From the IMG/VR virus record IMGVR_UViG_3300028886_000058, positions 32,001 through 96,000 of that record: a stretch of DNA of 64,000 nt. One strand, 5' to 3'. A program made the translations under genes and the position numbers. The notes below the pieces were generated by a model. That model was not told the origin of the DNA. It saw nothing but the letters and a program-made list of their open reading frames with translations, and made no database searches. Numbering within the stretch: the stretch's first letter is position 1; every line of letters begins with the position of its first letter. This document shows positions 23,961 to 46,158 of the stretch, piece by piece. This stretch comes from a virus. Taxonomy: Duplodnaviria > Caudoviricetes.

Positions 23961-26900
23961 TTAAATCACTCCTTTCTTGTTTTCCAGATATTCTATTCTT
24001 CTACGCAATGATTGAATTTCTTTAAGTAAAACAGGAATTAATTGAGTATAGTCAATTGCCTTATTATTATCGTTTTTTGTGCATATTTCAGGCAACACTT
24101 TTATTGCTTCTTCGTATATTAAACCAAACTTAGTTTCTTCATTTGGGTCGTTATTATACACGAAAGATACAGGGTTAAGATTATCAATAGTTTTCCCTAC
24201 ATCATTTAATGGCTTGATGTTATGTTTTACATCTTTTGATGATGCGCTGTGAACAGTACCATAGAAATGTAAGGGTTGTCCGCTTCCTATTATATTGATA
24301 ACTTGATTAGAAATATCAGCTATAAAATCACAAGAATAATTTTGATTTGTATTATCTGGGCGAATAGACACTTGATAATCTTTACCATTAATTTCTAAAG
24401 CACTAAGTTTTCCGTCTCTTGTTACATAAAAATCTGGTTTTGCGCTAGTGGATAAATCATCTGTATATTCTCCTCCTGCCCAAAACACGATACCTTCTCT
24501 GTTTGCAAACCCAAAAGTACTGTTTGTAATTTCAGTATTGTTTCCGATATGAGTCTCTCCGATTTGCATGTTTGCAATAGAAGATCCTTCTGTAGAAGAT
24601 AATACGCCATCTACAGAGACGTTATGTGCTGTTAATATTCCATCGCTTGTTACATTAAAATTAGTAACGTTATTATCATCCTTTATATCAATTATTCCAC
24701 CATTAATTAATATACTGTCTGTCTTAGCTGTACCATCTTTGTTGATAATAAATTTTCCAGCACCAAGATTAATTCCATTTGTACCAACATAAATACCATT
24801 ATGCGTGGTATCATCAATGCTCATAACGCCATTTCGGATATAAGTGTTTGAAGCATCAGACCCAATATCTAAGTTATTTCCACTTCCAACTGATATTTCA
24901 CCAGGGAGATCAATATTTAATGTTTCATTTCCTAACACTCTTGCGTTACCAGTGTCAGCATCTAAAGTAAATTTTTGACCAGTTATGCTTTTTTGTGCAT
25001 TTTCAAGCTTGGTTTTTAATATCGCACCATCGCTTAAAAATGTTTTTCCGTCATCCATATGGACACTTTCATCGTCGTCGCGATAAATAAAGTCTCCACC
25101 AAAGTTAACACCATCTGTGCCTAAATACACACCAGGTTCTGTGCTTGATAAACTGTCTGTGCCAGCATACATATAGTCTCTCTTAACAATTTCAGGGTTT
25201 TCTTCGTCAACTTCTTGACCCAAAGTAAACCCAGCGATCATAGCACCGGAAGTGTTAATGTTGCCAGAAATAATAACTTCGCCTTGACCGTCTAAATTAA
25301 CTTTTAAATTAGGAGAGTCGAGCTTAAACGTTGCTTCTGCTGTAACATCCAATATGCCTTCTGTGCTAATTGATAAGCTACCTCCGGCTTTAATAGCCAT
25401 GCTACCGCCGGATTCGATATTTAAATTGCCGCCAGACTGAACATTAACTTCTCCGCCAGATTTTACATCAATCTTTCCTGGGTTTTCAGCGTCTCCTGCG
25501 CGAATCTCAATCATGGAGTCGCCGTCTCCTAAAGCCCCAGCTGGTCTGGTACCGTCTGTAGTTGCAAATAAAACCAAAGCTTTATTACTGCTAATTTCAA
25601 GTTCTTCACCAACAGTAGCGTCAATTTTATCAGCAGTAATACTTCCAGTCTCGATTAATTTAGCTGATAATGTTCCTGCCGTTATAGCATCGGCAGAGAT
25701 ACCTTGTCCAGTAGCAATAGTCCTAAACACTGGTTCACCTTGGGCGTCCTTTGTGTCACTTAACATCCAGCCGTCACCAGATAACATCATAGAAGATTTA
25801 CCGTCAGAAGACTCGAACACCATTCTTCCTTTGTCATCTGTGTACCAGTTGGCTGCTCCACCTACCAGTTTGTTTTTACCAGTTTCCAATGAACCTTCAA
25901 GTTTATCTGCTGATAATTTACCAGATCCGCTTAAAGCTGCAGCTCTTTCATAAAGAGTCTGCTTGTTCTTTGTTTCATTAGAAACTTCAGCAATACGAGC
26001 CATAACGTCAGAAAAGTCATGTTGACCAATGAGACTTAAATTAGTGTTTACTTCTATTTTAGTCTGCCATGGTTTGTCATAACATTTCTCAAGTTTGTCT
26101 ATATAAGCCCAGCAGTTTATTTTGATTTCTGGATCTATTAAATGAACAGCATCAGTAACCTCTATATCCGGATATTCAATCTCTTCTATTTTAGTATCAT
26201 CATCCGGTTCTTCGTCTAATTCATGACCTTTTTTAAAGCCAAACGAACTTCCATATTGATCAACAAAAGTAAACGAATAACTTACTTCGGGTTTAGCAAC
26301 CTTCTCAAAGTTATCTAAAGCATCAGCGTAAAGCTTATCTTCGTCTCCTTCGATATACGAGTCATCAGACCAGAAACCTTCTCGAAGCATATCGCCAAGG
26401 AAAATATTTAAGTTATTTGTCTTTTCTTCTATAGCTTGTTGAGCATCTACCATTGCTTGGTATTCTTGCTCATATGCTCTGTCCGAAATTTCTCCGAATT
26501 TCTTTACCAGATTATTTATTCCGATAAGTTCTCCATCATTAGTGATAGGATATAATTTAGTGTATTGCTTATCAGATAAGAACATTTTATCCTGATAGTC
26601 TTTAACTTGGATATAATCTGTATCATAAAACTGTTCAGTACTCATTGCACGAACATATCTTGCATTTGCTGGTGTTGTAATAGTTCCAATACCATTAACA
26701 GGTTCAGAATTAATAAATGTTTTTGTGTTTGTATAGAAAAATAGTTTCGTACTAGAAGAAAAACTATATTTATATAACGTATTTTCGTATACAATAGAAT
26801 GACCAGTAATATAAGCTTCTCCACCTGTAGCAACGCCACTGTCGTCAATTTCTCCACGGTTTACTTTGGAAAAATCAATAATGTTTTCAGTAGGGAAGGT

Positions 26901-29239: not shown

Positions 29240-30331
29240 TTATGCGAACGTTGGTTTATACGAAAAATTCAGTTTGTCTAAATTCATTGTTGTCTTTGGA
29301 GTAATAATAAGTTCGTTCATAGACACGACCATTGTTTTTTCATTTCCAGAATGTTCAATTTCAGGAGTAACAGTAAACCTATCAACATCGCTGTTAATTT
29401 GTTCGACGATCTTTCTCCACCTGTTATCAATATAAATATATTTACCAATCAAATTAATATGAACCTGATTAGTTAGCATAACAGTATTTCCCGGTTCATA
29501 ACAAGCAAACAACTGTCTCATTGGTTCTCCAGCTGGCTCCAGTTCGATAAACCCTTCGTCATGGTACATAAAAGCTAATTCGCTTTCGGAAGATCCTCTG
29601 AGGAGCGTTTTGCCGCTGACACCGTCTATGTAAACTTCTTTATCAGAGTCAGTTGTATCAGCTCTGGAAATAGCTACTAAGCCACAAGTTTGGTTCGTTG
29701 TTTTGTTATAGATAGTAACTCCGTCACCAACATCACCAGCTACGATAATGCTGACATGAGCACGTTCAGTTCCGGGGTTTAACAACAGAATTTCTGTTTG
29801 TTCTGTTAAGTTAGTAAAAGAAGTTTGCGGAACCATGTCTTCGTTTTCTGGCATAGCTGTATTGCGCATAACTCTAAAATGATCAACATCCGTTAGTTCG
29901 TTGTACATTTTATCGCTTCTTGCATATGGATAGTATGCTTTCATGTTGATAGTAACTAATCCGTTCATATAGTTATTCAGTTCAGGATGAGGCACGCTTG
30001 TTACAGTTGCATAGTAATAACACCAAGGTCTACGTGCAAATATAAGTTTACCCGCCTTACCAATTCTGAATAGATTATGTATTTTAGCCATAACACCTTC
30101 ATCCAACGAAGATTCTTCAAACAAACAACGAAGTCTAAACTCCTTTGGTTGTTTTGAAGATCCATAATAGTATCCGCCATTATGTCCTTCGAAGGTTTCT
30201 TCGTAGATGTTTGTTTCGGCGGGAGCATATACATATGTATCTTCTTTTTCCGGCACATAGGTTAAGCCGAGATCAGCAATATCTATACCGCAAAAAGAAA
30301 AGCCGCCTTCAATTAACTTGTCGCACTGCAC
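29240..30331 (-). CDS. Distal tail protein (Dit)
   Basis: Directly after the tape measure gene. FSFCG.....GL, G.L.F...P..YYYA and F/M.AYYPYA motifs. GTG start after AGGAGG. Confidence 0.7.
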   Translation of the reverse strand: MQCDKLIEGGFSFCGIDIADLGLTYVPEKEDTYVYAPAETNIYEETFEGHNGGYYYGSSKQPKEFRLRCLFEESSLDEGVMAKIHNLFRIGKAGKLIFARRPWCYYYATVTSVPHPELNNYMNGLVTINMKAYYPYARSDKMYNELTDVDHFRVMRNTAMPENEDMVPQTSFTNLTEQTEILLLNPGTERAHVSIIVAGDVGDGVTIYNKTTNQTCGLVAISRADTTDSDKEVYIDGVSGKTLLRGSSESELAFMYHDEGFIELEPAGEPMRQLFACYEPGNTVMLTNQVHINLIGKYIYIDNRWRKIVEQINSDVDRFTVTPEIEHSGNEKTMVVSMNELIITPKTTMNLDKLNFSYKPTFA

Positions 30332-30357
30332 AAGTTTGCCCTCCTTCCTATGAATGT

Positions 30358-30390
30358 GGAGAGAGAAGAGCGTCAAGCCCTTCTCTCTCC
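30358..30390 (-). terminator. Hairpin downstream of the tape measure gene
   Basis: GGAGAGAGAAG/CTTCTCTCTCC stem. No clear U-tract. Confidence 0.4.
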
Positions 30391-30455: not shown

Positions 30456-33400
30456 TTACCAAGCATATGCAGCTAAATTGAACCCGTCTTTTTGCAATTC
30501 TTTAGTGAATGCTTTACCAACTCTACGAGCGACCTCATCGTAATCAGCATCGCTCTCAAGACGAGCTTCATAAAGATTGACGTTAACATCTCCAACATTA
30601 ATACCGCCTTTTCCAAATGCGCTTTCATCAAGATGTGTCATGTAAGGTGAAGTTTTAATATACGTAAATTCATCAAGCATTGCACGTAGTAAAGCAGTGT
30701 CAGTAGAATCAAGGAAAGCTTCTGGTTTAGTTTTAGTTCCGTCAACCCAAGCTGGTCCAGTATAGTCTACAAGACCGCCGTTTAAGAACGTTCCTACGTT
30801 TTTCGCTTTTCTGCCACCCGCATTCACAGTTCCGTTTTTGTCTTCTTGATATATATTACCTGTTTGACGTTGAACGCCACCTTTTTTTGCAAATTCAGAT
30901 ATGGCTGCGTCTTTAGCAGCATTTTTAGATGATTTCCATCCTCCACCAGCCAACAACGTTGTATTATCAGATTTTAAACCAAATGCTGTTGCATAGTAAT
31001 TTGCATATCCACTAGGACTACTACTAGAACTGCTGCTACTGCTGCTACTTGAACTTTTCTTTTTCTTTGGTTCATCTTTTTTCCCAATACCTTCATATTC
31101 ACTAAATTGGCTCATGAAGTCAGTATACAAGTCTTTATGGGGTCCGCCGATAATAGCGTCAAAATAATCTTTAAGATTGCCAAAATCAGAATCAGCACTG
31201 TCCCATTCAACTTTGTAGGTCCAATCTTGCATATCGTCAATCTTGTCTAATATTTCATGAGTATCGTATAGTTCATATTTATCGTCTTTATCTGCAGCAA
31301 TCATACGATCATACATATAGTCAAGATTCATTTCAATTGCTTTTTTACCAGCTTCAGAAGCCATTGCATAAGAATCGCTGCCAAGCATATAATCCATAAA
31401 GCTTTCTTTAGAAGAACCATATCCTTCTACTTCATCCCAATAGGTTTGAAGCTCATGTTTCATTACATGCCAAGTATCTTCCCAACCTTGTTCAAGCTGT
31501 TTGCGACGTTCTTCAGAAGCATTTTTATATTCTTCATCGTCTTGAGCCATGAAATTAACAAAGTCATCAAAAGTACCGGATAAAAGTTCAGTTACTTTAT
31601 CTCTAAATGTATCATAGTGACTTAGTCTTTCATTTAAATTTTCTTCTTCTGTGGATACGAATTCATCCAGCGCTTTTATCTGATCTTCATAAAGCTTATT
31701 TTGAGCAGCAGCTTGTTCATCAGCAATGTTCCAAGCAAGATCTCGTTCAATTTCTTCGATCTTCTTAGAAAGTTCTTTAGCGTCTTTTGTACGAGATTGA
31801 TCTGCCTGAATTAATGCTAACTGTTGTTTGAGCCGAGAAAGTTCTTCCATTTTATCTTCTTGGTTCATAGCATCTTTCTTTGCTTTTATTCTTTCGTTTA
31901 ACAAAGCCTTCTGTTCGTTCAAAGCTTCTTTCTGTTTTTGAATTGTTTTCTTAATCAAGGCCCATTCATCTTGGTAATTCTTTTTAATTACGTTTATTAT
32001 AGTATTTTCCATAGTAACTGTAGCATTTAACATATTCTTTTCTGTTTGTATTCTATTTCTAATTTCTTTATCTATTGCATTTTCAACATCAGTATGAGCT
32101 TTTATAATAGCTTCCTGATTCTTTCTGATTTTTTCCGTTAATTGTTCTACAGTATTTATTTCAGATTTACGAGCTTCTTCCAGTTTATAAATTTCAGCTC
32201 TTACTTGTTTGTATATCGGAGAACTGCTATCTAATGTATCATAGAAAGCTCTTAATATTTCAAGTTGATTTTCTATATTCGATGTACGTTCATTATGAAG
32301 CCCTTGTTCAACCTCAAGAGCTCTACCGTAGTTAGTAAGCTCTCCAAGGTTCTGGAATTTGGTTTCATCGTATTGAACAAGCTTAATTTGGTGTTGATTA
32401 AGATCGTCGATTACAGAGAACGCATCAACAATATTTTGGAAACTAACTTGTTCTATCTCATTCTTGAGATCAATTATCGCATTTGAAGCGGATTTAGAAC
32501 CTTGCTCAAGTTCCCAGATGCCTTCTGTTACTATTTTCCACGCGTCAGAATATTCTTCTATTTCACCATTTCCAATAGCAGTATCAAGCATCTCTTGGAG
32601 ACTATCTCGTTGGGCTTCCTGTTCAATAGCAATTTGCTCTTGAAGTTCAGCTTGCTCACGAAGCATCTGGAGATATCCCTCATTATTGCTTTCTTTTTTA
32701 TATGCTTCGCCTTGCAATTGAGCCATTTGAAGCTGTGCCTGAAGAGGTTTAACAGCATCTTCAACTTGATATCTTGCTTGATCAACATAAGACTGCGCAA
32801 TTGCTTGATCTCTTTCGATCTTGTCGACGTCAAGCTGATGTAGCATTTCATCGTAGCTATACAATGCTTCTTTAGCATTGTACCAAGATTCAGTTTCAGA
32901 CCATCCATCTTCTTCAAGTTGAGCCATTTGTGCACGAGCACTGTTTGCTGCTTCTTGATAATACTTGTACAACTCTTCATTTTCTGCTTTAATCCCGCGA
33001 ACAGTATCGCGATATTCATCATACATATGAAGCATTTGATACGCATTACCATAACTTTCAAAGTTATTAATGTTATGTTGCGCATCCATAGAATTGCGTT
33101 CAAGCTGAGTAGCAATATTTCCAAGACGTGCTTCATTAAGCGCAATAGTATCTTGCAAGAATTGATTCTCAAGATCAGCATTTTCAGCTTGCAACTGCCA
33201 GATATGATCTCTTACGTTCAGCCAATTCTTTGAGTTTTCCTTATACTTTGTAAGAAGATCTTCATATTCTTTTATGTCGTCATTATTCTTTTTAATATCT
33301 TCTTTGTATTGACTAAGAATGTCGTTTTGGGTAGATTCATACTTTCCAAATTCTTCAGCAAGCTGATAGTTCTGAGCTTGTTTCTGGAGTATCGTAGCAC

Positions 33401-36400
33401 GTTGAGTAGCTGGTTTTTCTTCGTTTTCTTGCCTTATTTCTACTATTGTTATTTTCTTACCTTCTAAATCATCAAGAACATTCTTAATATTGTTGAGTTC
33501 TTCTTCGTAAGAATATAACTGCTCTGTTGCTTTCCACCAGTCATCAGAATATTTAGATAATCCACTTCGATAATTCTTTAATTCTTCTATACTCTTTTGA
33601 TACTGGGCTTCAAGACGAGATTGAAGGTTTATTTCCTTGTCTACTGTAGATAAATAATTGTCATAATCATTCATCTTTTCGTAGTGTATTTCATCAATCT
33701 CGAGCATCTTTTGCTCGTGCTGCAAAGCGGCAAGATCATGCTTTTGTTTTTCAAGAAGCTTATCGAGGCCAGATTTACCTCCACCGCCTCCTCCGCCTCC
33801 GCCGCCACCATGAGATCCAGTTCCTTTTACACTATCAATAACAACTTTACCAGATACATGTGTCCCATCGTCGGTGACTTCATAATGAGCGTCAACACCC
33901 ATGGATTGGAGCAACGCAATTAGCTTTGCTTGCTCTTCAGACATCGCGCTGCCAACGCCTTCAACGATGTCTTCCATTGAAACATTCCATGATCCGCCTT
34001 CAAGATTAACAGTTGGTCCTCCAGGAATTGTTAACGTTTCTCCGTTAATATATTCGCCTAAAACATCAGAAAGATCATCTATATAATTGTTTGCAAAATC
34101 CTGTAGCCCAGCAATGTCACTTGCTTCGTTTTCCTCTAGCGCTTTTAATATCGCGTCATTAAATTTTCCTGATTTTAATTCTTTATCGCTAAGGTTAAAC
34201 CCTGTCATTTCTTTTACAGCAGATAATGTATCCTTATCACGTTTTCCTTTTTTAAACTGATCAGTATAATATTGATTTTTAGCAACTTTTGACAATTCTG
34301 AACGTAAATTCTTAAAAGCAGATGTTTGTTCTTGTATTGAGCTACTATCATCGTGCATCGCTTTTCTGGCATCACGCAAAGACTTTGTAATATTCTTTTG
34401 AGCTTTGTTCCATTCATCTGACGTCTTTCCAGACTTTTTTAGAATTTCATCATAACGCTCATTTGTCTCGTTGAAATCATCTAGCTCAATTCCAGCCTCT
34501 TGTACTGCTTCAGCAACAGCAGCCCATGTATCAAATCCTTCTATTCCAGACGTATAAGCCTCAAAAGAACCAATTCTATCGTTATTGCGTATTGCGCTTA
34601 TGTCGTTAGAATTTATAATTTGTTGTAAACCTTGATACCTCTGGGAATTTGTTAATCCAGACACGCCGTTTGCAGCATTGTTGACAATAGTATTTGCATA
34701 TAGCTGGTCTAAATCAGAAAGATTCTCGTTTGGATTGAACGTCGCTAAACGTTCTGTCATGTTGCCATCATCTAAAAACCATGATCCGTTTTCGAAATAA
34801 GCACCCTCCGGAAGATTTAACCCCACTCCATTTTGGAAATCAATAAGACTATTTCTAACGTAATTAGAATATCGCGTGTTTCCTGTAATTTGACTTAAAG
34901 CCTCATATCCGGCTTCTTGATCTGCAATGTCTCCTTGTAAAAACGAGAGCGCTCTATCGTAAGTTTCTCCAGATGTAAGCACTTCTGTTATATTGTTAAA
35001 AGATTCAGAAGCTGAAGCAGCTGCTTGAGCAAGCATCAATAAAACTTCAGAAGCTTCATGCCCAGAAGCTTCAACATCGGAAAAGTCTATGTTTCCATTT
35101 TCATCTGCTTTAACGCCAATATCGTTGAATTTTTTACGAAGTTCTTCTGAAGAATTTAAGAGATCTGTCCAGTTTTGAACATCAGTATCATTAATTGCGT
35201 TTGCAAGATCTACAAACGATTTAATGCTACCATTAGAAAGCGAATTATAAATCTCATTAGCAGCAATTGCGCCTTTGTTTTGTTGTTGATACTGTAATTG
35301 CTGATAATTAAAAGCTCCACCAGCAGACGTCGAAGACAGCTTAGCTTTTTCTAAACTCTCTTGTTCTTGTGCAACTCGAAGTGCTTCATTGTTTTCGTTA
35401 AACGCTAATTGCCTTAATTCTTCTGATGGAGTTTGCCCGTTTTCTATTGCCCATTGATATTGTTGACCATAAGTTCCAAGACTTGAAACAGCGGCAGAAT
35501 AAAGATCATAGTCGGTATCTTTTGTTAATACTCCATTTAACAATTGCATCCTTGCATTTGCTAATTCAGAATCTGAGTATTTACGCGTTGTATCAGCAAG
35601 CAAGGCAGATCTATCAACAGTACTGCTACTTGGCTTATTATAGTCAGCTAATATTTTTTCGTATCTTTCTTGTATATACGAAGGCACAGAAAAGAACGTG
35701 CCATATTGTGCCATATTATCTGATGCAAAACCAATAGTTCCAGTACTCTCATCATATTGATATCTATATTCATTTCCTGTTGTGCCATAAAAATCATTTA
35801 ACTCTGCTAAAGCAGCTTGGCGAATAGATTCATCTGTTTTTTGATCTTCTTCTGCTATTCTTTGCTCTGTTAACTTTATGGCTTCTTCTCTGTTGTTCTG
35901 TATTCTTTCTTTTGACCATCCGGTATACGACATCATCGCATTAAGCTGTTCTTCAGCAGTGCCATTTCTAAATAAAGCAGCTTGTTGCGCATTGTTGTAT
36001 AAAGTGTTTTCAAATTCAAGCTTCGCTTTAATGGCGAATTCTCCGCCTTTTTGAAGCCCTTCAACTAAGGCCGCAGTTCCTTCAAGTACTTTATTAGCGG
36101 ATTCTAATTCAGATACTCCTGTAACTGCTATTTGTACGTCTATCTCTCTTTTAAGATTAACCCCTTCTTGAGATCTGCGCTGGAAAAGATCCATTTGCAT
36201 ATATTTCTCAAGGCCAGAAATACTTTTAGCAGCACTCCACTCGTCTTCTGTCCATTGAGTTAATCCTGTTTCAGCTTCTGTAAGAGAATCATATCCTAAT
36301 ACTTTTTTAGCTAATGAAGCTGCTTGTGAATTGGTGTATTGTTTTCCTGTACCAAATGCAATTCCCTTTTCAGCAAGCGTTCTTCTTACAAGGTTTTCAT

Positions 36401-39400
36401 ATTCAGAACCAACATATGTTCCTGTTTCAAGAGCATTAAGAATATTATCTGCATTATCTCCAAAATAAGTTTGGAATGATTTATATCCGTCGCTATTTCT
36501 GTATCCTTCTATAAGATTTGGTTGCGATGAAAGAAGATTAATTATTTCTCCCCAAGATGAAGATATACTAGCATTAGTTGCTTTACCTGTAACAGCATTT
36601 TCCAGTCCGGATTTAACAATATTAATATCGTTACCTAGCCAACCCAATAAAGCTTCTGGAGTATCAAATATAGCATTTGCCAATACAGAATCCAGCCCAG
36701 CAGAAGCATAAGCACTTTTTAGCTCGTCAATTGATTCATATTCAGATATTCCTTTAATTCTATATCTCGACAACGAGCTTAAATATGCCTTTTGAAGTCT
36801 TTTATCGTATTCCTCATCAGATTCTCCTTGATACTGAGAACCAGTAATTTCTTGAGCAAGCAACATAGCAGCATCTGTACTTATTGGTTGTCCGTTTAAT
36901 ATGCTTGCTATGCTTGTTTGAAGATTGTTTGCATTGGCTTGTTGTATTTTAGCTGATATAAGTCTATCTGCAGTTTGATAAGCAACATTTCCGTTTGCAT
37001 TTTTTATGCTTGTGTATTCTAAACCGTTTGTTCTGACAAATGCTTTTGCTTCGTCTTCAGTAGTAAAACCTTTTCCGTTAACAAAATACGACCATGCATC
37101 TTCCGGGGCATTCTCTTCAACAAAACGATTTATATAAGCGCTTGGATTGTTGCTATTTAAAAAGCCAGTAAACACACGAGAAATTAATGGAGTTATTGCT
37201 TCTGTACTTAAAAGACCTTTTTTTGCTCCTTCTTGAATCAGATATTCTGGCAATATTTCGTTAGTTTCTTGGTCTACAACGTTCTTAACTATGTAGTTCT
37301 TAAGTGTTTTTTCTAAAAATTCAGAATCATACACATCACTTGCATTTGCCAATGATTCGATAGGAAAGTCTTTTACCATATTTTGAGCAAAATTTAAATC
37401 AATTTGCCTTTTAGCAATGTCTAAATTTTCTTGCATTTCCTGGTTCATTAAACCTGTAACTACATTTTGCCAAAAAGAAGTTGCATCTTCATTAGATATT
37501 TTATTTTCCTTTTTATTCTTTAAAGCAATTGCAACAGGATCAGTTCCATACATTATATCAATATAATCTTTAAAATCTTTGTTTTCAGAATATAAAGAAA
37601 CTAATGCATTTACTCTGCTTTGATTATCTTTATTGGCAGCACTTTCTGTGTTAAACTTACGAATAATTTCTTCTGGTGTTTTATCTTTATATATATTATA
37701 TCTGTCATTTGCTTCTTTGTAATCAGAGTAAGTATATGAACCAGATTCCATACCAGACATTATGGCATAAAGAGAACTTTCATTTGGAACATATTTTGAC
37801 TTAATCCAACTAGAAATTCCTGTTTTTAAATTTGAGATGCGTTGTGGTGTAAAAGATTCTTCATATAATAAATTTTCATAAGTTTGTTGAGATGTTTTTG
37901 CCTCATAATCAACTGCTTCCTGAACTGTTTGACGAGTGTTTTCTTTAAGATACTTTTTGCCTGTTTCGCTAGCGCTTTTTACAGCATTTTCCCAGTTAGA
38001 AAGATCTTTAATTGCATTTAGAATTGACGCAGAAACTTCTGGAAACGCATTCTTTAAATCGTATAACCCTTTTGTAAGATTGTTTTCCGCTTGTGACTTA
38101 GCTACTGAGTCTTGAGAATCTTTTAAATCATTATATGCTTTTCCTAATCTCGTAACTTCATCTATGACATTTTGTTTGCTGTCATATGATTCATCTCTTA
38201 TTGCTTTTGATTCTTCGTTGCTTGTTAATAAACTTTCTTTATATTTATTAAACTTTTCTTTTTCACTTTGGAAATTTAAACCTGCAAATAATCCTTCAGA
38301 CAGAGCACCTCCGGCAAGTCCAGCAACCAACATAATTAATGTGGTAATCGGAGCAAGCTTGCCTCCACTAAGCGCCAATGCAGCAGTAGCAGCTGTAATC
38401 GCAGAGATACCTCCAGCAATAACAGAAAATCCATGCTCTATTCCATTATTATTAGATATCATTTGCAAGAATCCAGATATTCCATCAAGAACACCAGTTA
38501 CAACACCGCCATTAACAAAGCTTTCTACAACAGCGTCCCAAGAACTCTTTAATTCATTCATTGACGCTGAAAGACTCTGCATTGCGACTTCATATTTTGT
38601 TTGCGTTATTCCACTAGAGTTTTCAGCTAAGCCAAGATATTTATCTAACGTTGCACCATTATCTTCTGACATGCCCTCCATTAATGTTGCGAACACATTT
38701 GTCTGGCGAGTACCAGCCATCGCGTTCATAACAATATTCTTTTGGGCGTCGCTTAAATTTTGCCATACTTTTGATAAGTCAGACAAAACTTCATAAGACG
38801 AACGCATTTTACCTAATGTTTTATCGTCCCAAAGATCAATTCCAACAGATTGTAAAGCAGCTTCAGCATCTGACGCCGTAGTTGCTTCGCCGTTCTGATC
38901 GGATGTCCATTTACTAAGACTTAGTCTCCTCATTCGAGTAAATACAGTTTGAAGAGCTGTGCCTACTTGTGTTCCGCTTAACTGCGTATCACTTGTACCA
39001 ATAGTTAAAAGAGCTGTCAATTCAGAATAAGAAACACCTGCAACTTTAGCCGCAGCCGCAGCTTTCTGCATACCTTTGCCAATTTCGGCAGCAGTTGTAG
39101 CAGCAGAGTCACCAAGCGCAACAAGAGCATCCATAGCTGCTTCTGCAGATGGAACAAGATCATTTTGTAAAGCTGTTGTAATTATTTTTGTTGCTTCAGT
39201 TACGTTTAATTTAGTTACTGTTGCAAACTTAATAATGGACTCTGTACGAGAAGAAACTTCAGTATCACTTAATCCTTGACGATAAAGCGCCGCTTCAACA
39301 CCTGCAACATTAGATACTGATGTGCGAAGACCCAATGCTTTACTTATTGTTTGTGAACGAATTCCAGTCATATCCTCATCAGACTTTAAAGTTATGGCTT

Positions 39401-42400
39401 GAATTTCGTTCATTGAAGCGTCAAATTCTTTTACGAAACGTTTTGTTTCCTGAAGCGCTTTTTGGAACAACTGACGTCCAAGACGTGTAGCTAACCTGCC
39501 AACAACGTCTCCGAATTGAGAAGTAATAGCCATTGCTGTAGCCATTGGATCAGATAATTGTTCAATAGCTTTTCCGGCCTCAAGCGAAGCAGCTTCAAGT
39601 TCTTCAACTTCTTTTTTTGTGTTTTTATACTTATCGCTTGAAGTATCTCCGCTTTTTATATAGCTGTTTAACTGCTCTCTTTTTTTCGTCAGATCTTCAT
39701 TTATTGATTGCTGTTTATTTTCCCATTGGGATAACGCAGAATCTCTTCTGTCTAAAGCACGAACCAAGAACCCATTGCGAGTACCAAGACCATGCCTTTT
39801 CATTTGATCCATTTGACGAATAGACTGTTTTATGCGTAAACTGTCTCGTTGTTCACGGATATCGTTTTCAGCTCTTAATTGTTCAATATAATCGTCTTCA
39901 TTGTATTGATCATAATAACTAAGCAAAGAATCTAATCTTTCTTGTTGTGCAGCAGACAGTTTTGTTTTACCGTATCTTTTTTGAATACTTGCTTTTTCTT
40001 GCTTTATTTTTTCTGTTTGTTCATGAGCCGCAATATTAATTTGTTCATCTGTAGACAATCTTAAGCTACTTACATTACCAGCAATTCTAGCTTTTCTTGA
40101 TTCAAAATCTGCGAATGATTTGTCAATAATATTATCGCCATATGCTTTCATAGATGATATGGATATCATCTTATCAAGACTTTTCATATAATTGGCATAT
40201 TCATCAGATTCTTCATCTATGCCAAATTCTTTTGCGTATAATTTAGCATTTGCTTTTAGCTGTTTTACTGATTTTATATAAGATGTCATTTCGTCAGAGA
40301 TGGAAGTAACATTCGATGTCTTTTCACCAGAAGCAAGATCATCTAAATAATCTCTTGACTGATTAAGTTCGTCCCATACGTCTTTTTCGTTCTTTTTTAA
40401 ATACTTTGATTTTTCTTTATTTAATTTGTTCTGTAATGCCGCAGCTTCTTTTCGTTTTGGAATGAATATTTCATTCTGCGCTTCTATTTCAGCGATCTCA
40501 TTCTGAAGCCTTATTTTTTCTTCTTCTGTTTCGGCACCTTTTAGTTCAGCTTTTTTCTTTTTTGCATTAGTTTCATTTGATTCAATTTTGCTTTTAAGAA
40601 CTTCATATGCATCAGAAGCAGCTTCTATTTGTGCTGTAAGATTTTTAAATTCTTCGACCTTGCTGTTTGCCTTTTTCGATGCGACTTCTTCTGTATTGAT
40701 ATTATGTAATAAATCATACGCATCCTGTAAATTTTTAACAGAAGCATCAGGCAATATCGCGTCTAATCCAGAACGAGCTCTGTCTACTTGATCTCTCAGC
40801 ATATCTGCTTGAATAAACATTCCAGCATTTTCAAGATCATAAATAGTGCCTTGTTGCATAGCAAGCTGTTCATAGTTTCTAAGCCATGCGTTTCCTCTAA
40901 GTCCTTGCTTGCTTGCATCGTTTTTCCAGATAAAACTATTGATTCCGGAAACGGTTTGCATTGCTTTATTATATTCGTCATGCATTACAAGAGCCGCGCC
41001 GACACCTTCGCCAGTATTGCTGCCAACTTGAGCTTGCATATGTTCAACACGATTTTGTTCTTGCTGTAACGTATTTGCAATTTCGCTAAATCCGCTATGC
41101 CCAAACATATCGTCTAAAGCTTTACTAACCGCTAAAACTTGATCCATTTGGAATCCATTTTCCGCTAAGGTTTGGATAAGACGAGTTCCTTCTTGGGCCT
41201 TCTCGAGATTCTTTTGTATTGCTTCTGGAGAAGAATTAATCTGGCTTAGTCTGTTCTGTATCGGTTCAACGATATGGATACCTTCTAGTCCTCCGGCGGC
41301 AAGGCCTTTCGACTCTAAATAACCTGGAATAGCGCTTGCATACAACAACTGTTGCATTTGCCACATAGCTCTATCATGCGCTGTTGCATGAGGATAGTTC
41401 TTTAAGTCGCCAATTGAATACTGACCAGTTTTCCTGTTGCGTACCAATAAGTCGAAATAGCCTTTGCTTGTTACGTCTTCTTCTTCGCCTTTTTCATTCT
41501 TGTTTATTTTTTTACCAAGATTAAACGTAAGAGGAGAATTCTTTTCACCAGGACTTGTCGCGCCTTCTACGGCAACAACCTCATATTCGCTTTCAGGAAA
41601 TAAGTTCACTAAGCTATTACCAAGATAATTTTTTATATTTTTATAAGAATCTGTATTTTTAAGTTTCTTTACTTCTGCTTTTGATAAACCTTTTTTACCC
41701 ACATTATCGTCGAAATATTTTTCAAAATCTCCAACAGCTTCTTGTGCGGCTTTTGCTAATTCGTCTTCTGTCATTAATGTTGGGTTTTCTTCTAAGGCTC
41801 TTGCCATTCTTTTTCTCATAAATCCTTCAACGGCTTCATGAGTTGCCCAACCAAGATGTGTATACGGAGTAACATCTTGCTCTTTTCCGCCAAGATAATG
41901 TTCTGCCCATGCTGTTGGATTTTTCATTAATGATGCAAATAAGCTAGGAGAGAACTGAAGCTGATCAAGCTTTTTTGCGCGTGTTTCTTGATCAAAAGTG
42001 GCAATTTGAGATAATGTATCGTTACGTTCTAATAAGCGCTTTGCCTCTGCTTCTTGTTTTAATGCGTTATTAGATAAAACTTCTCCTTGCACATAGCCGC
42101 TTAAATCTGTATGACCTATAAGATTTGTTAAACCAATTTGATTAAGCTGACCAAATAAATCTCTATTAGCTCCAAGAATTGAAGAATTTTGAGTTAAAGC
42201 ATAAGAAACAAGGTTGTCTATTACAGATCCGCCTTGAGAAGCTAATCTTGATTTTGCAATTGCAGCGTCTGAGCGACGTAAATCAGTTCCTTTTAAAAGA
42301 CCATTTTGTCTTTCTTGAGCTACACGTTTTTCTTCTTCTTCGGTTGCCCTTGCTTTTAATTGCAATAACTGTGCAACCATTACATCAGACGGAGCCAAGT

Positions 42401-45400
42401 AATCTGCGTTAACAATGCCTAGCATTGTATCACGTAATCCAAGCTTCATTCTTCCAACAGCACTATTAGGATCTATTTCTCCATTAGCCGTCTTAAGAAT
42501 TTCATCCCAGTTATATCCTTCGTTTATGTCGTACCCGTACACATTCTTCGCAATAAAACGAGCAAGATTTTGAGATCGCATACTGCCACTCATACTTGCA
42601 GAAGGAAGATTTATACCGAAGAAATTCTTTTTCCTGAGTTCTTCAGGATCAATGTTTCCAAACTCGTCTCTGGATTTATCTACCATTCTATACCATTCAC
42701 TGAATGGTTTATATTTTCCAATAATAGATTGTTGTTGGCTACTTGTGTTTCTACCTTCGCCTTTTTTACCTTCTGTTGAGTTTGCATTGTATTGTCTATC
42801 AGCATCGATCAATGCAATTGCTATCTCTGAATCTGGTGTCATTTGAAACGCATTTCGAACTGTTGCGTTAGGCGTTCCCATCGAAGACGATTGCAAAGCA
42901 TAGTCAGACATCCATACTGCCGCGTTCTGTGCACCCTTTTTAGTTCTAAAATCAGTAGAAAAACTGTTTCCATGTTCTCTGAAGCGCCTTAAAACATTGT
43001 CTCTTTGCTTAAGTTGTTCTTCGGAAAGATTTCCACTTTCATATAATTTTTTATTATTCTTTACAGTAGCAGTAACTATTTTGTCCATTACTTTTGCAAT
43101 TGATGCTTTTTTCTCTTCGTTCGTAGCAAGTTCAATAATCTCCATTACGTCGCCGTCGAAATCAGCGCCTTGTAAAAGCTGCATCAATGGAGATGTAGTT
43201 GAGATATATAAACCATACGGATCTAATCCTATAGATTCTGCGAATTTTGAAATAGCATTATCGCCTTTCGCATTCATCACAGCTTGAACAGATTGTCCAG
43301 TTGCTGGGTATCTGCCAAGACCTAATTTGCTTGCAAGTGTTTTTTGGAACAAGACTCTATTGTCCCCAAGTGTCAATTCATTGAGTCTATTTTGCACTTT
43401 CTTTGGAAGTTGCTCAAAAGCCGACATAGTTTCGCCATTACGCTTTGTCTGCATATCAGCATTAAACGCATCAATTAACCATGGAGCAGCCATTCCTTTA
43501 TATGCAGATGCGTTTTCTGGAAGCATAATGTCTCCACGCAACATTCTTGCCATAATTGCTTGGCGGTAATCAGAAATTCTATTTTGAATAGCTTTGCTTC
43601 CAAAAAGTTCTGGATGCTTAGCAAGCAAATCGTGTGTTTCACCTTCGGCAAATAAATGATTCATTGCATAATCGTAGTTACCGACATTTTTATAATGTTC
43701 GATAAAAGATCTTGCAAACAACATGCTATCTGATTTATCCATTGAAAGTGTTTGCGCTAACTGTCCAGATATCCATCTTGTTTTACCGTTTGCGTCGCTG
43801 TAAAGTTTATTAGCATATATTCCTTTTTGAATATCTTTTTGAACTTCTTTTGTTATTTCTTCATTTGTCATTCCTGCGAAACGAGCGTTTGCATTTTTCA
43901 AGTCCGCAGCGTTAACAATCATATCAACGTCTTTGCCAATCTTGATGCGTTTACCAATCTTAATTTCCTTACCTTTATCATCAAGACGAACATTTCCATT
44001 TTCATCTAATAAAGCTTCTTTTTCTGCGTCAGATCCAGTATACGACGAAAGATAAAGTTCGCCACCGTAAGCTTCTATAAGTTTCTCAATATCTACAGCA
44101 GAAAGTGCAGACTTAATACCATGTGCACGACCTTGGAAACCTTTCTGTACAAATCTGTTAGAAATAATACTAGCACCGTTTAGTCCAGCGCCGCCATTTC
44201 CTTTTGTAGTGTCTTCAAGATCAACAACAACAATGTTTTGAGGCATTTCAGACCCAAATAATTTTTGAATGCTTTTGCCTGGCGTTGCGTTTTTATTTCT
44301 ATATTCCATTGCAGCAGCATATGTTTTCCAATCAGAAAAATCTGTCATTCCTAATCCAGCTGAAAAATATGTAGGATCTTCTTTGTTTATTTTGTCAAAG
44401 ATGCTTTTCCTAACAAATTCAGCTCCCATTTTAGGATTTATTCTGGATAAGACATATCTTTCATTCGCATCGTTCTTTCCTTTGCCGGAAATACCATGTT
44501 GAAACACATCAGCGTATTGATTAATTAAAGCTTTTCTTTCCGCTGCTGGTAAATTTGGATCACCAAGACGCGGATCAACCTCAAGATAAATTACATCGTC
44601 TGAATACGCATTATGCTTTTTGATACCGCCTTTGCTATTACGCATAATAGTATTAAGATGCATACTTTCGTCAACTGCAATGTGATGATAGTCTTTGTAA
44701 TTATCATATGTTTTTCTATCGTTCCAATTTCTATTGTTTTTTATATCATCTAAGTTATAAAAAGCAACTTCATAACTATTCGGAACAGGAGAATAATTAA
44801 TCTTTCCTGCTGAATACATTACGTTTTGCTTGTTTCTTCTTCCGCTATTTATCTTATTATAATCTTGTTGGGAATATCTTTCTGCTTCAAACCATCCATA
44901 TTCATCACTTAACCTTCTTGCGGCAGACATTCCACCCATAAATCTTTTGTTTGATTTGCGAGCTATTTTATCCCAGACGGCAGGATCATTAACGTCTGTG
45001 ATGCCGTACATTCCCATACCCTTTGCTGAATTCACAAGATCATCATATAAATAAGCGCCCATTGACTTGACCATGCCTCTGGACACGTTCTTCTTGACAA
45101 AGAGTTCACCATTTTTTCTTTGTACGATTTTAGCTGCTTCAGCAGCGTCAGCTGCAAACTGGTTATTCATCAACAAAGAATATAATGCTTGAGTTTCTTT
45201 AGCCGTTAATGATTGCGAATTTGCTTTTAATGCTTTTGCAAAATCAGGACTTGAGACATTTGCTGTACCAGTATTTATTCTTTTAAAACCTGTTGGAAGC
45301 ATATCCTGAAAACTGTCAAAAAGATGTTTTGCAGATCCTGTGCCAGTTGCTATTCTATTCATGAACGAAGCACGTTGAGTTTGACCTACACCTTTAAGAA

Positions 45401-45974
45401 TTGCCAGTCGGAAAATATCATCAACGTTACCAGAAGTATCATTTCCTAGTAATGCAGAACGCATTGCTTTGTATTTTTGTGTCGCTTTTATAGAAGCTAG
45501 GATTTGATCATCAGATGCCAAAGAACCGGTTTGTCTATAAATTTTAGTCGCATCTCTTGCCATTCCCATTAACTGAGGCATTAACGACTTCATTTGCTTT
45601 TGAGTATATGCTGTTGTTTGAGAGCCTATCTGCGATGTCAATTTCTGGATGGTTTGCACATCAGAAATAACGGCAGACAAACTTCTTGCCAAATTATTGA
45701 ACTCTGTTGTTTTAATATCCATTTGATATGAATCAAGTTTTCCAGCTTTTATTTGATCATTTATCAAAGACATATTGTGAAGAGTATTTGTGACGTTTTG
45801 AGATGCTTCATCAAATTGAGCACCAGTTTCTGGCAAAATAGATTCCGCATTCTTTTTTGTTTCTTTAATTGTTTTATTAAGTCTTTCACCCGCTGTAACA
45901 AGAGAGTTAAAATTCTCAACCGAATTACCAAAATCAATTTCAAAAGAAATTACACTTTGATTCTTTTCTGGCAT
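30456..45974 (-). CDS. Tape measure polyprotein, 5172 aa, with N-terminal RNA polymerase-like and PD-(D/E)xK nuclease domains
   Basis: Located between tail chaperones and Dit. TP901-type core around 38500-39450 (FDASMNEIQAIT...GTALQTVFTRM...AMAGTRQ.N.F..LM). C-terminal GGLVDYTGPAWVDG..KPEAFL. GADFDGD at 43149-43169. Nuclease motifs at 41335-41960. Confidence 0.9.
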   Translation of the reverse strand: MPEKNQSVISFEIDFGNSVENFNSLVTAGERLNKTIKETKKNAESILPETGAQFDEASQNVTNTLHNMSLINDQIKAGKLDSYQMDIKTTEFNNLARSLSAVISDVQTIQKLTSQIGSQTTAYTQKQMKSLMPQLMGMARDATKIYRQTGSLASDDQILASIKATQKYKAMRSALLGNDTSGNVDDIFRLAILKGVGQTQRASFMNRIATGTGSAKHLFDSFQDMLPTGFKRINTGTANVSSPDFAKALKANSQSLTAKETQALYSLLMNNQFAADAAEAAKIVQRKNGELFVKKNVSRGMVKSMGAYLYDDLVNSAKGMGMYGITDVNDPAVWDKIARKSNKRFMGGMSAARRLSDEYGWFEAERYSQQDYNKINSGRRNKQNVMYSAGKINYSPVPNSYEVAFYNLDDIKNNRNWNDRKTYDNYKDYHHIAVDESMHLNTIMRNSKGGIKKHNAYSDDVIYLEVDPRLGDPNLPAAERKALINQYADVFQHGISGKGKNDANERYVLSRINPKMGAEFVRKSIFDKINKEDPTYFSAGLGMTDFSDWKTYAAAMEYRNKNATPGKSIQKLFGSEMPQNIVVVDLEDTTKGNGGAGLNGASIISNRFVQKGFQGRAHGIKSALSAVDIEKLIEAYGGELYLSSYTGSDAEKEALLDENGNVRLDDKGKEIKIGKRIKIGKDVDMIVNAADLKNANARFAGMTNEEITKEVQKDIQKGIYANKLYSDANGKTRWISGQLAQTLSMDKSDSMLFARSFIEHYKNVGNYDYAMNHLFAEGETHDLLAKHPELFGSKAIQNRISDYRQAIMARMLRGDIMLPENASAYKGMAAPWLIDAFNADMQTKRNGETMSAFEQLPKKVQNRLNELTLGDNRVLFQKTLASKLGLGRYPATGQSVQAVMNAKGDNAISKFAESIGLDPYGLYISTTSPLMQLLQGADFDGDVMEIIELATNEEKKASIAKVMDKIVTATVKNNKKLYESGNLSEEQLKQRDNVLRRFREHGNSFSTDFRTKKGAQNAAVWMSDYALQSSSMGTPNATVRNAFQMTPDSEIAIALIDADRQYNANSTEGKKGEGRNTSSQQQSIIGKYKPFSEWYRMVDKSRDEFGNIDPEELRKKNFFGINLPSASMSGSMRSQNLARFIAKNVYGYDINEGYNWDEILKTANGEIDPNSAVGRMKLGLRDTMLGIVNADYLAPSDVMVAQLLQLKARATEEEEKRVAQERQNGLLKGTDLRRSDAAIAKSRLASQGGSVIDNLVSYALTQNSSILGANRDLFGQLNQIGLTNLIGHTDLSGYVQGEVLSNNALKQEAEAKRLLERNDTLSQIATFDQETRAKKLDQLQFSPSLFASLMKNPTAWAEHYLGGKEQDVTPYTHLGWATHEAVEGFMRKRMARALEENPTLMTEDELAKAAQEAVGDFEKYFDDNVGKKGLSKAEVKKLKNTDSYKNIKNYLGNSLVNLFPESEYEVVAVEGATSPGEKNSPLTFNLGKKINKNEKGEEEDVTSKGYFDLLVRNRKTGQYSIGDLKNYPHATAHDRAMWQMQQLLYASAIPGYLESKGLAAGGLEGIHIVEPIQNRLSQINSSPEAIQKNLEKAQEGTRLIQTLAENGFQMDQVLAVSKALDDMFGHSGFSEIANTLQQEQNRVEHMQAQVGSNTGEGVGAALVMHDEYNKAMQTVSGINSFIWKNDASKQGLRGNAWLRNYEQLAMQQGTIYDLENAGMFIQADMLRDQVDRARSGLDAILPDASVKNLQDAYDLLHNINTEEVASKKANSKVEEFKNLTAQIEAASDAYEVLKSKIESNETNAKKKKAELKGAETEEEKIRLQNEIAEIEAQNEIFIPKRKEAAALQNKLNKEKSKYLKKNEKDVWDELNQSRDYLDDLASGEKTSNVTSISDEMTSYIKSVKQLKANAKLYAKEFGIDEESDEYANYMKSLDKMISISSMKAYGDNIIDKSFADFESRKARIAGNVSSLRLSTDEQINIAAHEQTEKIKQEKASIQKRYGKTKLSAAQQERLDSLLSYYDQYNEDDYIEQLRAENDIREQRDSLRIKQSIRQMDQMKRHGLGTRNGFLVRALDRRDSALSQWENKQQSINEDLTKKREQLNSYIKSGDTSSDKYKNTKKEVEELEAASLEAGKAIEQLSDPMATAMAITSQFGDVVGRLATRLGRQLFQKALQETKRFVKEFDASMNEIQAITLKSDEDMTGIRSQTISKALGLRTSVSNVAGVEAALYRQGLSDTEVSSRTESIIKFATVTKLNVTEATKIITTALQNDLVPSAEAAMDALVALGDSAATTAAEIGKGMQKAAAAAKVAGVSYSELTALLTIGTSDTQLSGTQVGTALQTVFTRMRRLSLSKWTSDQNGEATTASDAEAALQSVGIDLWDDKTLGKMRSSYEVLSDLSKVWQNLSDAQKNIVMNAMAGTRQTNVFATLMEGMSEDNGATLDKYLGLAENSSGITQTKYEVAMQSLSASMNELKSSWDAVVESFVNGGVVTGVLDGISGFLQMISNNNGIEHGFSVIAGGISAITAATAALALSGGKLAPITTLIMLVAGLAGGALSEGLFAGLNFQSEKEKFNKYKESLLTSNEESKAIRDESYDSKQNVIDEVTRLGKAYNDLKDSQDSVAKSQAENNLTKGLYDLKNAFPEVSASILNAIKDLSNWENAVKSASETGKKYLKENTRQTVQEAVDYEAKTSQQTYENLLYEESFTPQRISNLKTGISSWIKSKYVPNESSLYAIMSGMESGSYTYSDYKEANDRYNIYKDKTPEEIIRKFNTESAANKDNQSRVNALVSLYSENKDFKDYIDIMYGTDPVAIALKNKKENKISNEDATSFWQNVVTGLMNQEMQENLDIAKRQIDLNFAQNMVKDFPIESLANASDVYDSEFLEKTLKNYIVKNVVDQETNEILPEYLIQEGAKKGLLSTEAITPLISRVFTGFLNSNNPSAYINRFVEENAPEDAWSYFVNGKGFTTEDEAKAFVRTNGLEYTSIKNANGNVAYQTADRLISAKIQQANANNLQTSIASILNGQPISTDAAMLLAQEITGSQYQGESDEEYDKRLQKAYLSSLSRYRIKGISEYESIDELKSAYASAGLDSVLANAIFDTPEALLGWLGNDINIVKSGLENAVTGKATNASISSSWGEIINLLSSQPNLIEGYRNSDGYKSFQTYFGDNADNILNALETGTYVGSEYENLVRRTLAEKGIAFGTGKQYTNSQAASLAKKVLGYDSLTEAETGLTQWTEDEWSAAKSISGLEKYMQMDLFQRRSQEGVNLKREIDVQIAVTGVSELESANKVLEGTAALVEGLQKGGEFAIKAKLEFENTLYNNAQQAALFRNGTAEEQLNAMMSYTGWSKERIQNNREEAIKLTEQRIAEEDQKTDESIRQAALAELNDFYGTTGNEYRYQYDESTGTIGFASDNMAQYGTFFSVPSYIQERYEKILADYNKPSSSTVDRSALLADTTRKYSDSELANARMQLLNGVLTKDTDYDLYSAAVSSLGTYGQQYQWAIENGQTPSEELRQLAFNENNEALRVAQEQESLEKAKLSSTSAGGAFNYQQLQYQQQNKGAIAANEIYNSLSNGSIKSFVDLANAINDTDVQNWTDLLNSSEELRKKFNDIGVKADENGNIDFSDVEASGHEASEVLLMLAQAAASASESFNNITEVLTSGETYDRALSFLQGDIADQEAGYEALSQITGNTRYSNYVRNSLIDFQNGVGLNLPEGAYFENGSWFLDDGNMTERLATFNPNENLSDLDQLYANTIVNNAANGVSGLTNSQRYQGLQQIINSNDISAIRNNDRIGSFEAYTSGIEGFDTWAAVAEAVQEAGIELDDFNETNERYDEILKKSGKTSDEWNKAQKNITKSLRDARKAMHDDSSSIQEQTSAFKNLRSELSKVAKNQYYTDQFKKGKRDKDTLSAVKEMTGFNLSDKELKSGKFNDAILKALEENEASDIAGLQDFANNYIDDLSDVLGEYINGETLTIPGGPTVNLEGGSWNVSMEDIVEGVGSAMSEEQAKLIALLQSMGVDAHYEVTDDGTHVSGKVVIDSVKGTGSHGGGGGGGGGGGKSGLDKLLEKQKHDLAALQHEQKMLEIDEIHYEKMNDYDNYLSTVDKEINLQSRLEAQYQKSIEELKNYRSGLSKYSDDWWKATEQLYSYEEELNNIKNVLDDLEGKKITIVEIRQENEEKPATQRATILQKQAQNYQLAEEFGKYESTQNDILSQYKEDIKKNNDDIKEYEDLLTKYKENSKNWLNVRDHIWQLQAENADLENQFLQDTIALNEARLGNIATQLERNSMDAQHNINNFESYGNAYQMLHMYDEYRDTVRGIKAENEELYKYYQEAANSARAQMAQLEEDGWSETESWYNAKEALYSYDEMLHQLDVDKIERDQAIAQSYVDQARYQVEDAVKPLQAQLQMAQLQGEAYKKESNNEGYLQMLREQAELQEQIAIEQEAQRDSLQEMLDTAIGNGEIEEYSDAWKIVTEGIWELEQGSKSASNAIIDLKNEIEQVSFQNIVDAFSVIDDLNQHQIKLVQYDETKFQNLGELTNYGRALEVEQGLHNERTSNIENQLEILRAFYDTLDSSSPIYKQVRAEIYKLEEARKSEINTVEQLTEKIRKNQEAIIKAHTDVENAIDKEIRNRIQTEKNMLNATVTMENTIINVIKKNYQDEWALIKKTIQKQKEALNEQKALLNERIKAKKDAMNQEDKMEELSRLKQQLALIQADQSRTKDAKELSKKIEEIERDLAWNIADEQAAAQNKLYEDQIKALDEFVSTEEENLNERLSHYDTFRDKVTELLSGTFDDFVNFMAQDDEEYKNASEERRKQLEQGWEDTWHVMKHELQTYWDEVEGYGSSKESFMDYMLGSDSYAMASEAGKKAIEMNLDYMYDRMIAADKDDKYELYDTHEILDKIDDMQDWTYKVEWDSADSDFGNLKDYFDAIIGGPHKDLYTDFMSQFSEYEGIGKKDEPKKKKSSSSSSSSSSSSSPSGYANYYATAFGLKSDNTTLLAGGGWKSSKNAAKDAAISEFAKKGGVQRQTGNIYQEDKNGTVNAGGRKAKNVGTFLNGGLVDYTGPAWVDGTKTKPEAFLDSTDTALLRAMLDEFTYIKTSPYMTHLDESAFGKGGINVGDVNVNLYEARLESDADYDEVARRVGKAFTKELQKDGFNLAAYAW

Positions 45975-46130
45975 AATTAACGCCTCCTAAATGTTTATTT
46001 ATATTTCAAACAGCAAAATGCTGATAATTACAAACTTAAAAAATATATTTAAAACAAAGTAAAATCCTGACTTATAACCCTGGTGGTTTAAATGCCGAGA
46101 AAAAATAGCAACTAAGTTCAGGATAAGTTA

Positions 46131-46152
46131 GGGGAGTGCCTAAGCACTCCCC
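46131..46152 (-). terminator. Hairpin after ORF 46159
   Basis: GGGGAGTGC/GCACTCCCC 9-bp stem. Weak U-tract. Confidence 0.4.
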
Positions 46153-46158
46153 TTAACG

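Follow-up and report, generated by a model that had tools for sequence, protein, structure and literature searches.

A predicted two-barrel RNA polymerase and nuclease at the N-terminus of a giant tape measure protein in a phage of the cattle and sheep gut

The virus record IMGVR_UViG_3300028886_000058 (Duplodnaviria; Caudoviricetes) encodes a tape measure protein of 5172 amino acids (aa), the N-terminal part of which is predicted to fold as a complete single-chain two-barrel RNA polymerase (RNAP) and is followed by a predicted nuclease and then by the ruler itself. The window analysed here is a stretch of 64,000 nucleotides comprising positions 32,001 to 96,000 of this record, that is, the central 64 kb of 124,601 bp; the ends of the record overlap by 182 bp, and CheckV estimates it to be 92% complete. 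The protein is encoded by a single unbroken open reading frame (ORF) of 15.5 kb on the minus strand (window 30456..45974), whose start methionine lines up with the starts of all 39 homologues that were aligned. The explanation favoured here, to which a probability of about 0.7 is assigned, is that this polyprotein of RNAP, nuclease and tape measure would be ejected at infection and would transcribe the first phage genes without the host RNA polymerase. Positions given below as genome coordinates refer to the whole record, and all others to the window.

The polymerase domain

An AlphaFold2 model of residues 181-1300, computed from a 25-row alignment, reached a predicted local distance difference test (pLDDT) score of 84.3 and a predicted template modelling (pTM) score of 0.82, with pLDDT below 50 in model residues 1-36 (aa 181-216). 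When compared with the PDB by Foldseek, the model matched, at E <= 0.001, exclusively single-chain two-barrel polymerases, including QDE-1 at 1e-9, RDR2, and gp64 of phage P23-45 and gp62 of phage P74-26 at 2e-4; gp66 of phage phi14:2 followed at 1.4e-3. The 17 top entries of VIA-align are likewise all single-chain two-barrel RNAPs, with Z-scores from 13.1 to 6.4 over 376-543 aligned residues. Among them are RDR2 (Z 13.1, 516 residues, 3.8 A), QDE-1 (Z 10-11, ~540 residues, model positions 135-972), P23-45 gp64 (Z 9.2), P23-45 gp96 (8h2n_A; Z 7.8, root-mean-square deviation 4.4, 376 residues) and phi14:2 gp66 (Z 6.4, 534 aa). Below them the scores drop off, with the first unrelated chain at Z 4.0 and then the beta-prime subunits of multisubunit polymerases at Z ~3.5. 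Matches in BFVD comprise gut-phage 'RdRP' proteins, pieces of crAss-like virion RNAPs and, again, P23-45 gp64. The double-psi barrels anticipated in a preliminary description of this DNA are indeed predicted, single-chain two-barrel RNAPs being the only class matched by the model in Foldseek, VIA-align and BFVD. The span of the structural matches places the core at about aa 315-1152 (window 42519..45032, minus strand), and the model, VIA-align and profile comparison by hhalign together support its assignment as a complete single-chain two-barrel RNAP of the QDE-1/RDR/YonO clade. The preceding region (aa 1-314, window 45033..45974, minus strand) is partly conserved, namely at R201, P227 and G289.

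Homologues of aa 300-1450 were sought among 1.84 billion representative proteins, and 64 relatives were found, 39 of them (counted as clusters) at E < 1e-30. Nearly all full-length relatives are giants of 3.7-6.0 thousand aa that match at their own residues ~300-1450, and all eight homologues retrieved by a word-indexed search carry PF10145, a tape-measure domain, in their precomputed Pfam annotation. For counting conservation, the N-terminal regions of 39 members of this family, among which identity falls to ~25%, were aligned. Eleven positions (G600, Q614, R616, K621, K693, R888, P890, D918, D938, D940 and D942) are invariant in 39/39 sequences, and G941 is kept in 38/39; the invariant columns are exactly the residues expected of a polymerase. 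The putative beta-like barrel contains the motifs (D/N)G..IS (aa 599-605) and FQGRxxGxK (aa 613-621), which together occupy window 44109..44183 on the minus strand and align with DG..I and R..W.K of YonO-like proteins; in the present protein they lie in LNGASIIS (aa 598-605, window 44160-44183) and GFQGRAHGIKS (aa 612-622, window 44109-44141). A second invariant lysine of this barrel, K693, is found in AADLKN (aa 689-694, window 43893..43910, minus strand). Further downstream are GRYP (aa 887-890, window 43305..43316, minus strand), which provides the RxP motif of the beta-prime-like barrel and aligns with YonO-like RNP, and the predicted metal-binding loop DFDGD (D938, D940, D942; window 43149..43163, minus strand), which aligns with YonO-like DYDGD and forms the end of LQGADFDGD (aa 934-942, window 43149-43175). 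The spacing between RxP and DxDxD, 47 residues, is within the range of the filter [RK]xPx{20,100}DxDxD applied to such RNAPs by Chaban et al. (PMC10770324).

As the preliminary description had claimed, all of these motifs share one unbroken frame with the PF10145 tape-measure core of the 5172-aa ORF; each of them is present, and the coordinates given there needed one correction, the GFQGRAHGIKS stretch reaching down to 44109, one codon beyond 44112. Two caveats of that description, the replacement of the usual DG by NG and of KG by KS, turned out to be normal variation within the family: at position 599, 26 homologues have D and 13 have N, and position 622 is variously A, S, T or G. The conservation of the aspartates, on which its assignment depended, extends to the basic residues of the other barrel. 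Judged by this conservation, the motifs are more than a chance resemblance.

Aligned as profiles with hhalign, the family of the fused domain and the YonO-like/PF05183 family match at 92.6% and E 4.5e-7 over 372 columns, with DG..I, R..K, RxP and DxDGD all in register. The fused domain itself gave no match to the Pfam family PF05183 (RdRP) at E <= 0.1, and BLASTP detected no similarity between it and two free YonO/QDE-1-type polymerases encoded elsewhere in the same genome (see below). Since there is no PF05183 match and the link to PF05183 proteins appears only between profiles, the fused domain would represent a separate sequence family within the clade. No match to the polymerase domain was found by tblastn in 50,697 deposited phage genomes, and none by a peptide-pattern scan of IMG/VR.

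Nuclease, ruler and the reality of the fusion

The polymerase is followed by a region modelled confidently as helical in both of the models computed (aa ~1153-1342, window 41949..42518, minus strand) and then by a second predicted enzyme. The second AlphaFold2 model (aa 1300-1720, pLDDT 85.8) matched AdnA (5e-5), AddB (6e-5), the Cas4-family protein ACE1 (1e-4), Dna2 and RecE in Foldseek, with probability 1.0 for all of them and E-values from 5e-5 to 2e-2. The protein has the motif residues D1508, D1523-x-K1525 and Q1541xxxY1545, which also predominate at their positions in 18 aligned homologues; no Pfam family matched the region. On the basis of fold and motif, aa ~1343-1625 (window 41100..41948, minus strand) are a predicted PD-(D/E)xK nuclease of the RecB/AddB/Cas4 type, in line with the order of RNAP, nuclease and ruler proposed at the outset. 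As to its role, processing of the ends of host or incoming DNA is a guess.

The sequence matches identify the ORF product as the tape measure of a siphovirus-type tail. The tape-measure core, PF10145 (PhageMin_Tail), spans aa 2212-2421 (window 38712..39341, minus strand) with E 3e-29 and a score of 102.8 bits against a cut-off of 33.2, and ten PHROG tape-measure families match the protein, the best of them at 1.8e-28. This identity is supported by the position of the gene, which occupies the tape-measure slot of a minus-strand structural operon (large terminase, portal, capsid-like protein, 5172-aa ORF, distal tail protein (Dit), tail-tip/fibre protein), after the head and tail genes and right before Dit (window 29240..30376, minus strand; phrog_33, E 5e-18). 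The ruler part appears from its sequence to consist of coiled coil with the tape-measure core, a putative membrane hairpin of two hydrophobic segments located by a Kyte-Doolittle scan (aa 2515-2566, window 38277..38432, minus strand), and a conserved C-terminal module (aa 5066-5172, window 30459..30779, minus strand) with the family consensus GG.VD.TG.AWVDGT... Transmembrane domains are characteristic of many tape measure proteins (PMC10770324). The ruler also contains two homopolymers of more than 10 residues, a Gly run from aa 4056 (window 33780-33809, minus strand) and a Ser run from aa 4974 (window 31026-31055, minus strand), which may be flexible hinges or slippage-prone tracts.

A domain of this kind could in principle be an inactive structural relic, such as a plug or an assembly scaffold, or the fusion could be an artefact of assembly or gene calling, and the fact that no curated family model matches the domain is what such an explanation would lead one to expect. 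It is nevertheless very improbable and largely refuted. Even at a divergence of ~25% identity, 39/39 sequences have kept the three aspartates of the metal-binding loop, RxP and the basic positions of the other barrel, which speaks against decay. The fusion is no assembly artefact: the stronger argument is that the architecture is common to ~30 independent giant homologues from different assemblies with the same layout, and in addition a 103,659-bp contig of depth 125, which may be the window's own source, covers window 38500-46500 without a difference. Two other studies, one on cattle and one on sheep, yielded low-depth contigs that tile this region at ~97-98% identity. Parts of the gene are also covered, at 100% identity, by contigs from an RNA library (run X5), although contigs cannot show transcription or its timing.

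DNA of this phage was found in cattle and sheep gut metagenomes of four studies. In one metagenome-assembled genome (MAG) of Acutalibacteraceae, giant tape-measure polymerases are encoded on two different contigs, as ORFs of 4957 and 5692 aa; the first contig has one YonO-like polymerase locus and the second has two. Of these three loci, two are each divided between adjacent ORFs, C1:88382-90816 (695+301 aa) and C9:28287-31025 (595+365 aa), the splits falling at about model positions 547 and 458. No match was found in 400 other sampled genomes of the order to which this MAG belongs, so that the relatives look mostly like free phages and not like common prophages. The host is probably a member of Clostridia, and the earlier suggestion of a host group other than that of the Thermus phages agrees with the origin of the samples and with the Acutalibacteraceae relative.

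Ejection and early transcription

A precedent for a polymerase fused to a tape measure, invoked from the beginning, does exist. The N-terminal part of P23-45 gp96 is an active virion RNAP that transcribes the pre-early genes, including the gene of a non-virion polymerase (PMC10770324), and fusions of the gp96 type also occur in P74-26, G20c and TSP4, with structures available as PDB 8H2N/8H2M (Chaban et al. 2024, PMC10770324). What the analysis itself shows is the predicted fold, an active site whose key residues are intact and invariant, and the conservation of the fusion; in the account favoured here, it is inferred from the analogy with gp96 that the protein is packaged, ejected and active in early transcription. 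The polyprotein, arranged as a leader of ~300 aa, polymerase, helical linker, nuclease and ruler, would become part of the tail and, at infection, would be ejected into the cell envelope; the N-terminal polymerase would meet the entering DNA at the pore and would transcribe the pre-early genes independently of the host RNA polymerase. The phage thus probably injects its own transcription enzyme. The pre-early genes would probably include that of an 812-aa YonO-type polymerase, and the later gene classes would fall to the two free enzymes of the YonO type.

These free enzymes are encoded outside the window, both on the plus strand and both assigned to PF05183: one of 941 aa at genome 2435-5260 and one of 812 aa at genome 97656-100094. 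They are paralogues (25% identity, E 7e-34), and the latter shares 29% identity with SPbeta YonO (E ~1e-44); with the predicted one in the tape measure, the two-barrel RNA polymerases of this phage number three. The presence of two free YonO-type polymerases sharpens the analogy with P23-45. A plus-strand early block begins at genome ~94.5 kb, and the 812-aa polymerase gene starts ~3 kb into it, a position that would fit a P23-45-like scheme. Consensus sigma-70 sites in the early block number 73 against 62.5 +/- 7.9 expected, which is uninformative.

Several observations weigh against this explanation. It is difficult to see how a tail tube could accommodate a folded polymerase of ~95 kDa together with a nuclease, and the storage of the enzyme in the tail is likewise unsolved for P23-45 (PMC10770324). 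Pfam (E <= 0.1) and PHROGs identified no family in aa 1-1700, and searches of PDB sequences with phmmer and with the family profile yielded coiled-coil noise alone and did not recover 8H2N. No sequence similarity to gp96 was detected when the family profile was aligned by hhalign with the single gp96 sequence (aa 1-1250), the result being E 0.066 over 68 columns outside the motifs; the power of this comparison is low, a true relative taken as a single sequence scoring E 0.017 in a control, and the analogy with gp96 is accordingly one of fold and architecture alone. Finally, no early-promoter motif shared among 54 intergenic stretches was found, a search for exact 11-14-mers and for 9-mers with one mismatch having returned AT-rich words alone.

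In a different explanation, the polymerase, alone or together with the nuclease, would be released from the tape-measure precursor by cleavage, either before the tail is assembled or in the course of assembly, and instead of being injected would act inside the producing cell, where it could serve, for example, late transcription or RNA synthesis linked to replication. Many tape measure proteins undergo proteolytic processing, the tail lumen is narrow, the gene is located in a late structural operon, so that the enzyme would be made late anyway, and YonO of SPbeta, a relative from the same clade, is said to act on late genes. Intracellular work, however, could already be done by the two free YonO-type polymerases; the retention of the fusion and of the domain order down to ~25% identity argues that the physical link matters; and the fused enzyme of P23-45 is a virion protein acting on pre-early genes (PMC10770324). 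Cleavage and intracellular action are regarded as unlikely.

The domain could also be ejected in an active form and have another main task, namely pulling the genome into the cell by transcribing it, making primers, or synthesizing RNA on an RNA template, with the nuclease assisting. The best structural matches, RDR2 and QDE-1, are RNA-dependent enzymes, a DNA nuclease is fused alongside, and coupling of transcription to DNA translocation through a tape-measure pore has been proposed by Chaban et al. (PMC10770324). The phage members of the clade that have been tested, gp96, gp64 and phi14:2 gp66, are in contrast described as enzymes of DNA-templated transcription; the sequence does not separate these roles, and they are compatible with transcription of early genes. 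As the main function, any of these tasks seems quite unlikely.

Early transcription by an ejected, tail-borne polymerase is the preferred explanation. The profile match to YonO-like proteins, the absence of an alignment with gp96 and the ranking of the Z-scores suggest that a YonO/QDE-1-type gene gave rise to this fusion, separately from the one in the Thermus phages. Only tentatively can a broader scenario be put forward, which is doubtful in its entirety: an independent fusion of a YonO/QDE-1-clade polymerase and a RecB-type nuclease to the tape measure would characterize a widespread lineage of ~100-150-kb Clostridia phages of the gut and rumen, in which a cascade of three polymerases, one injected and two made in the cell, would render gene expression fully independent of the host RNAP and the nuclease would act on DNA at the entry pore.

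Genomic setting and comparison with known systems

At the head of the structural operon is the large terminase (window 59269..60939, minus strand; phrog_2), which by tblastn is nearest to Clostridium phage c-st (31% identity) and to SPbeta-like phages (27%), and the operon continues downstream of Dit with a tail-tip/fibre protein of 1754 aa (window 23961..29225, minus strand) that matches PHROG tail fibre and baseplate families. Two genes of other kinds lie among the structural genes. A GIY-YIG-type homing endonuclease (window 49445-50122, minus strand; phrog_314, E 2e-35) is found among the head and tail genes, with a non-coding gap of unusual length on either side (genome 81280-81444 and 82123-82455), and an exonuclease (window 56369-57571, minus strand; phrog_284, E 4e-43) is located between the portal and the capsid-region genes, an odd position for a gene of DNA metabolism. 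Outside the window, the record starts with a reverse transcriptase (genome 291-1433, plus strand; PF00078, E 3e-19). A PHP domain with an N-terminal fragment of DNA polymerase III alpha (genome 12333-13898, plus strand) has only 521 aa, so the replicative polymerase seems to be split or truncated; a primase-helicase (genome 7158-9023) and a PD-(D/E)xK nuclease (genome 9225-10073) are encoded near it. Two strong terminator-like hairpins on the plus strand, at genome 102647 and 109506, have the same loop and stem core, GGGAG...GATGGGAGC...CTCC followed by a T-run; they may represent a phage-specific terminator signal of the early block, comparable to the terminator motif that is reported to be conserved in P23-45.

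The closest parallel to the present protein is P23-45 gp96. Both are giant tape measures (5,002 aa there, 5,172 here) of a siphovirus tail module, with a two-barrel RNAP carrying a DFDGD loop in the N-terminal fifth of one polypeptide with the tape-measure core, and both genomes encode free polymerases of the same broad clade elsewhere, one in P23-45 and two here. The predicted domain is, however, structurally closer to QDE-1/RDR2 (Z 10-13) than to gp96 (Z 7.8), an additional, predicted RecB-type nuclease lies here between the polymerase and the ruler, and the setting is the mesophilic gut of cattle and sheep with a probable Clostridia host, as opposed to Thermus. A metallopeptidase domain has been reported in gp96 (PMC10770324), whereas no Pfam metallopeptidase matched any third of the present protein. 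For gp96 both the location in the virion and the activity have been demonstrated; the present protein is known from sequence and models. Relative to P23-45, it thus differs in polymerase family, in host group and in the added nuclease, a statement that does not extend to the 23 published RNAP families.

Other relatives share either the enzyme or the concept. Proteins of the YonO/PF05183 family are single-chain two-barrel RNAPs with DG..I, R..K, RxP and DxDGD in the same order, and the backbone of the phage is, by its terminase, distantly SPbeta-like; YonO is free-standing, whereas the present domain is embedded in a structural protein. Neurospora QDE-1 and plant RDR2 are the best structural matches (Z 10-13 over 510-540 residues, both barrels included) but have only ~10% identity, use RNA templates and belong to eukaryotic RNA silencing, an unrelated biological context. 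The crAss-like phi14:2 gp66 (PDB 6VR4) has the two-barrel fold (Z 6.4 over 534 aa), and with the virion polymerases of the N4 type it shares the concept of a particle-borne enzyme within a very large protein that is ejected to start transcription; these are head or ejection proteins of podoviruses, however, and not tape measures. The N4 virion polymerase is T7-like and has a different fold. Gut Siphoviridae with two free polymerases are listed in Supplementary Data 4 of Chaban et al. (PMC10770324), and a term search of the supplementary files of that work found no tape-measure-fused form outside the Thermus phages (PMC10770324). In the literature searched, which did not cover two key surveys of RNAP families, a fusion of tape measure and polymerase is described for the P23-45 group only.

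If the favoured explanation is correct, the same tail-delivered design would exist in an unrelated lineage of mesophilic phages from the animal gut, which suggests that equipping the head-proximal end of the tape measure with a polymerase is a recurrent solution and not a curiosity. The 39 clusters found at E < 1e-30 would provide a second, sequence-diverse family in which three questions about such enzymes can be approached: how an enzyme of ~95 kDa is stored in or behind the tail tube, how it passes a Gram-positive envelope, and how promoters are divided among three polymerases. As Pfam and PHROG are blind to the N-terminal 1700 residues of this protein, giant 'tape measure' genes in metagenomes would be worth checking for hidden enzymes.

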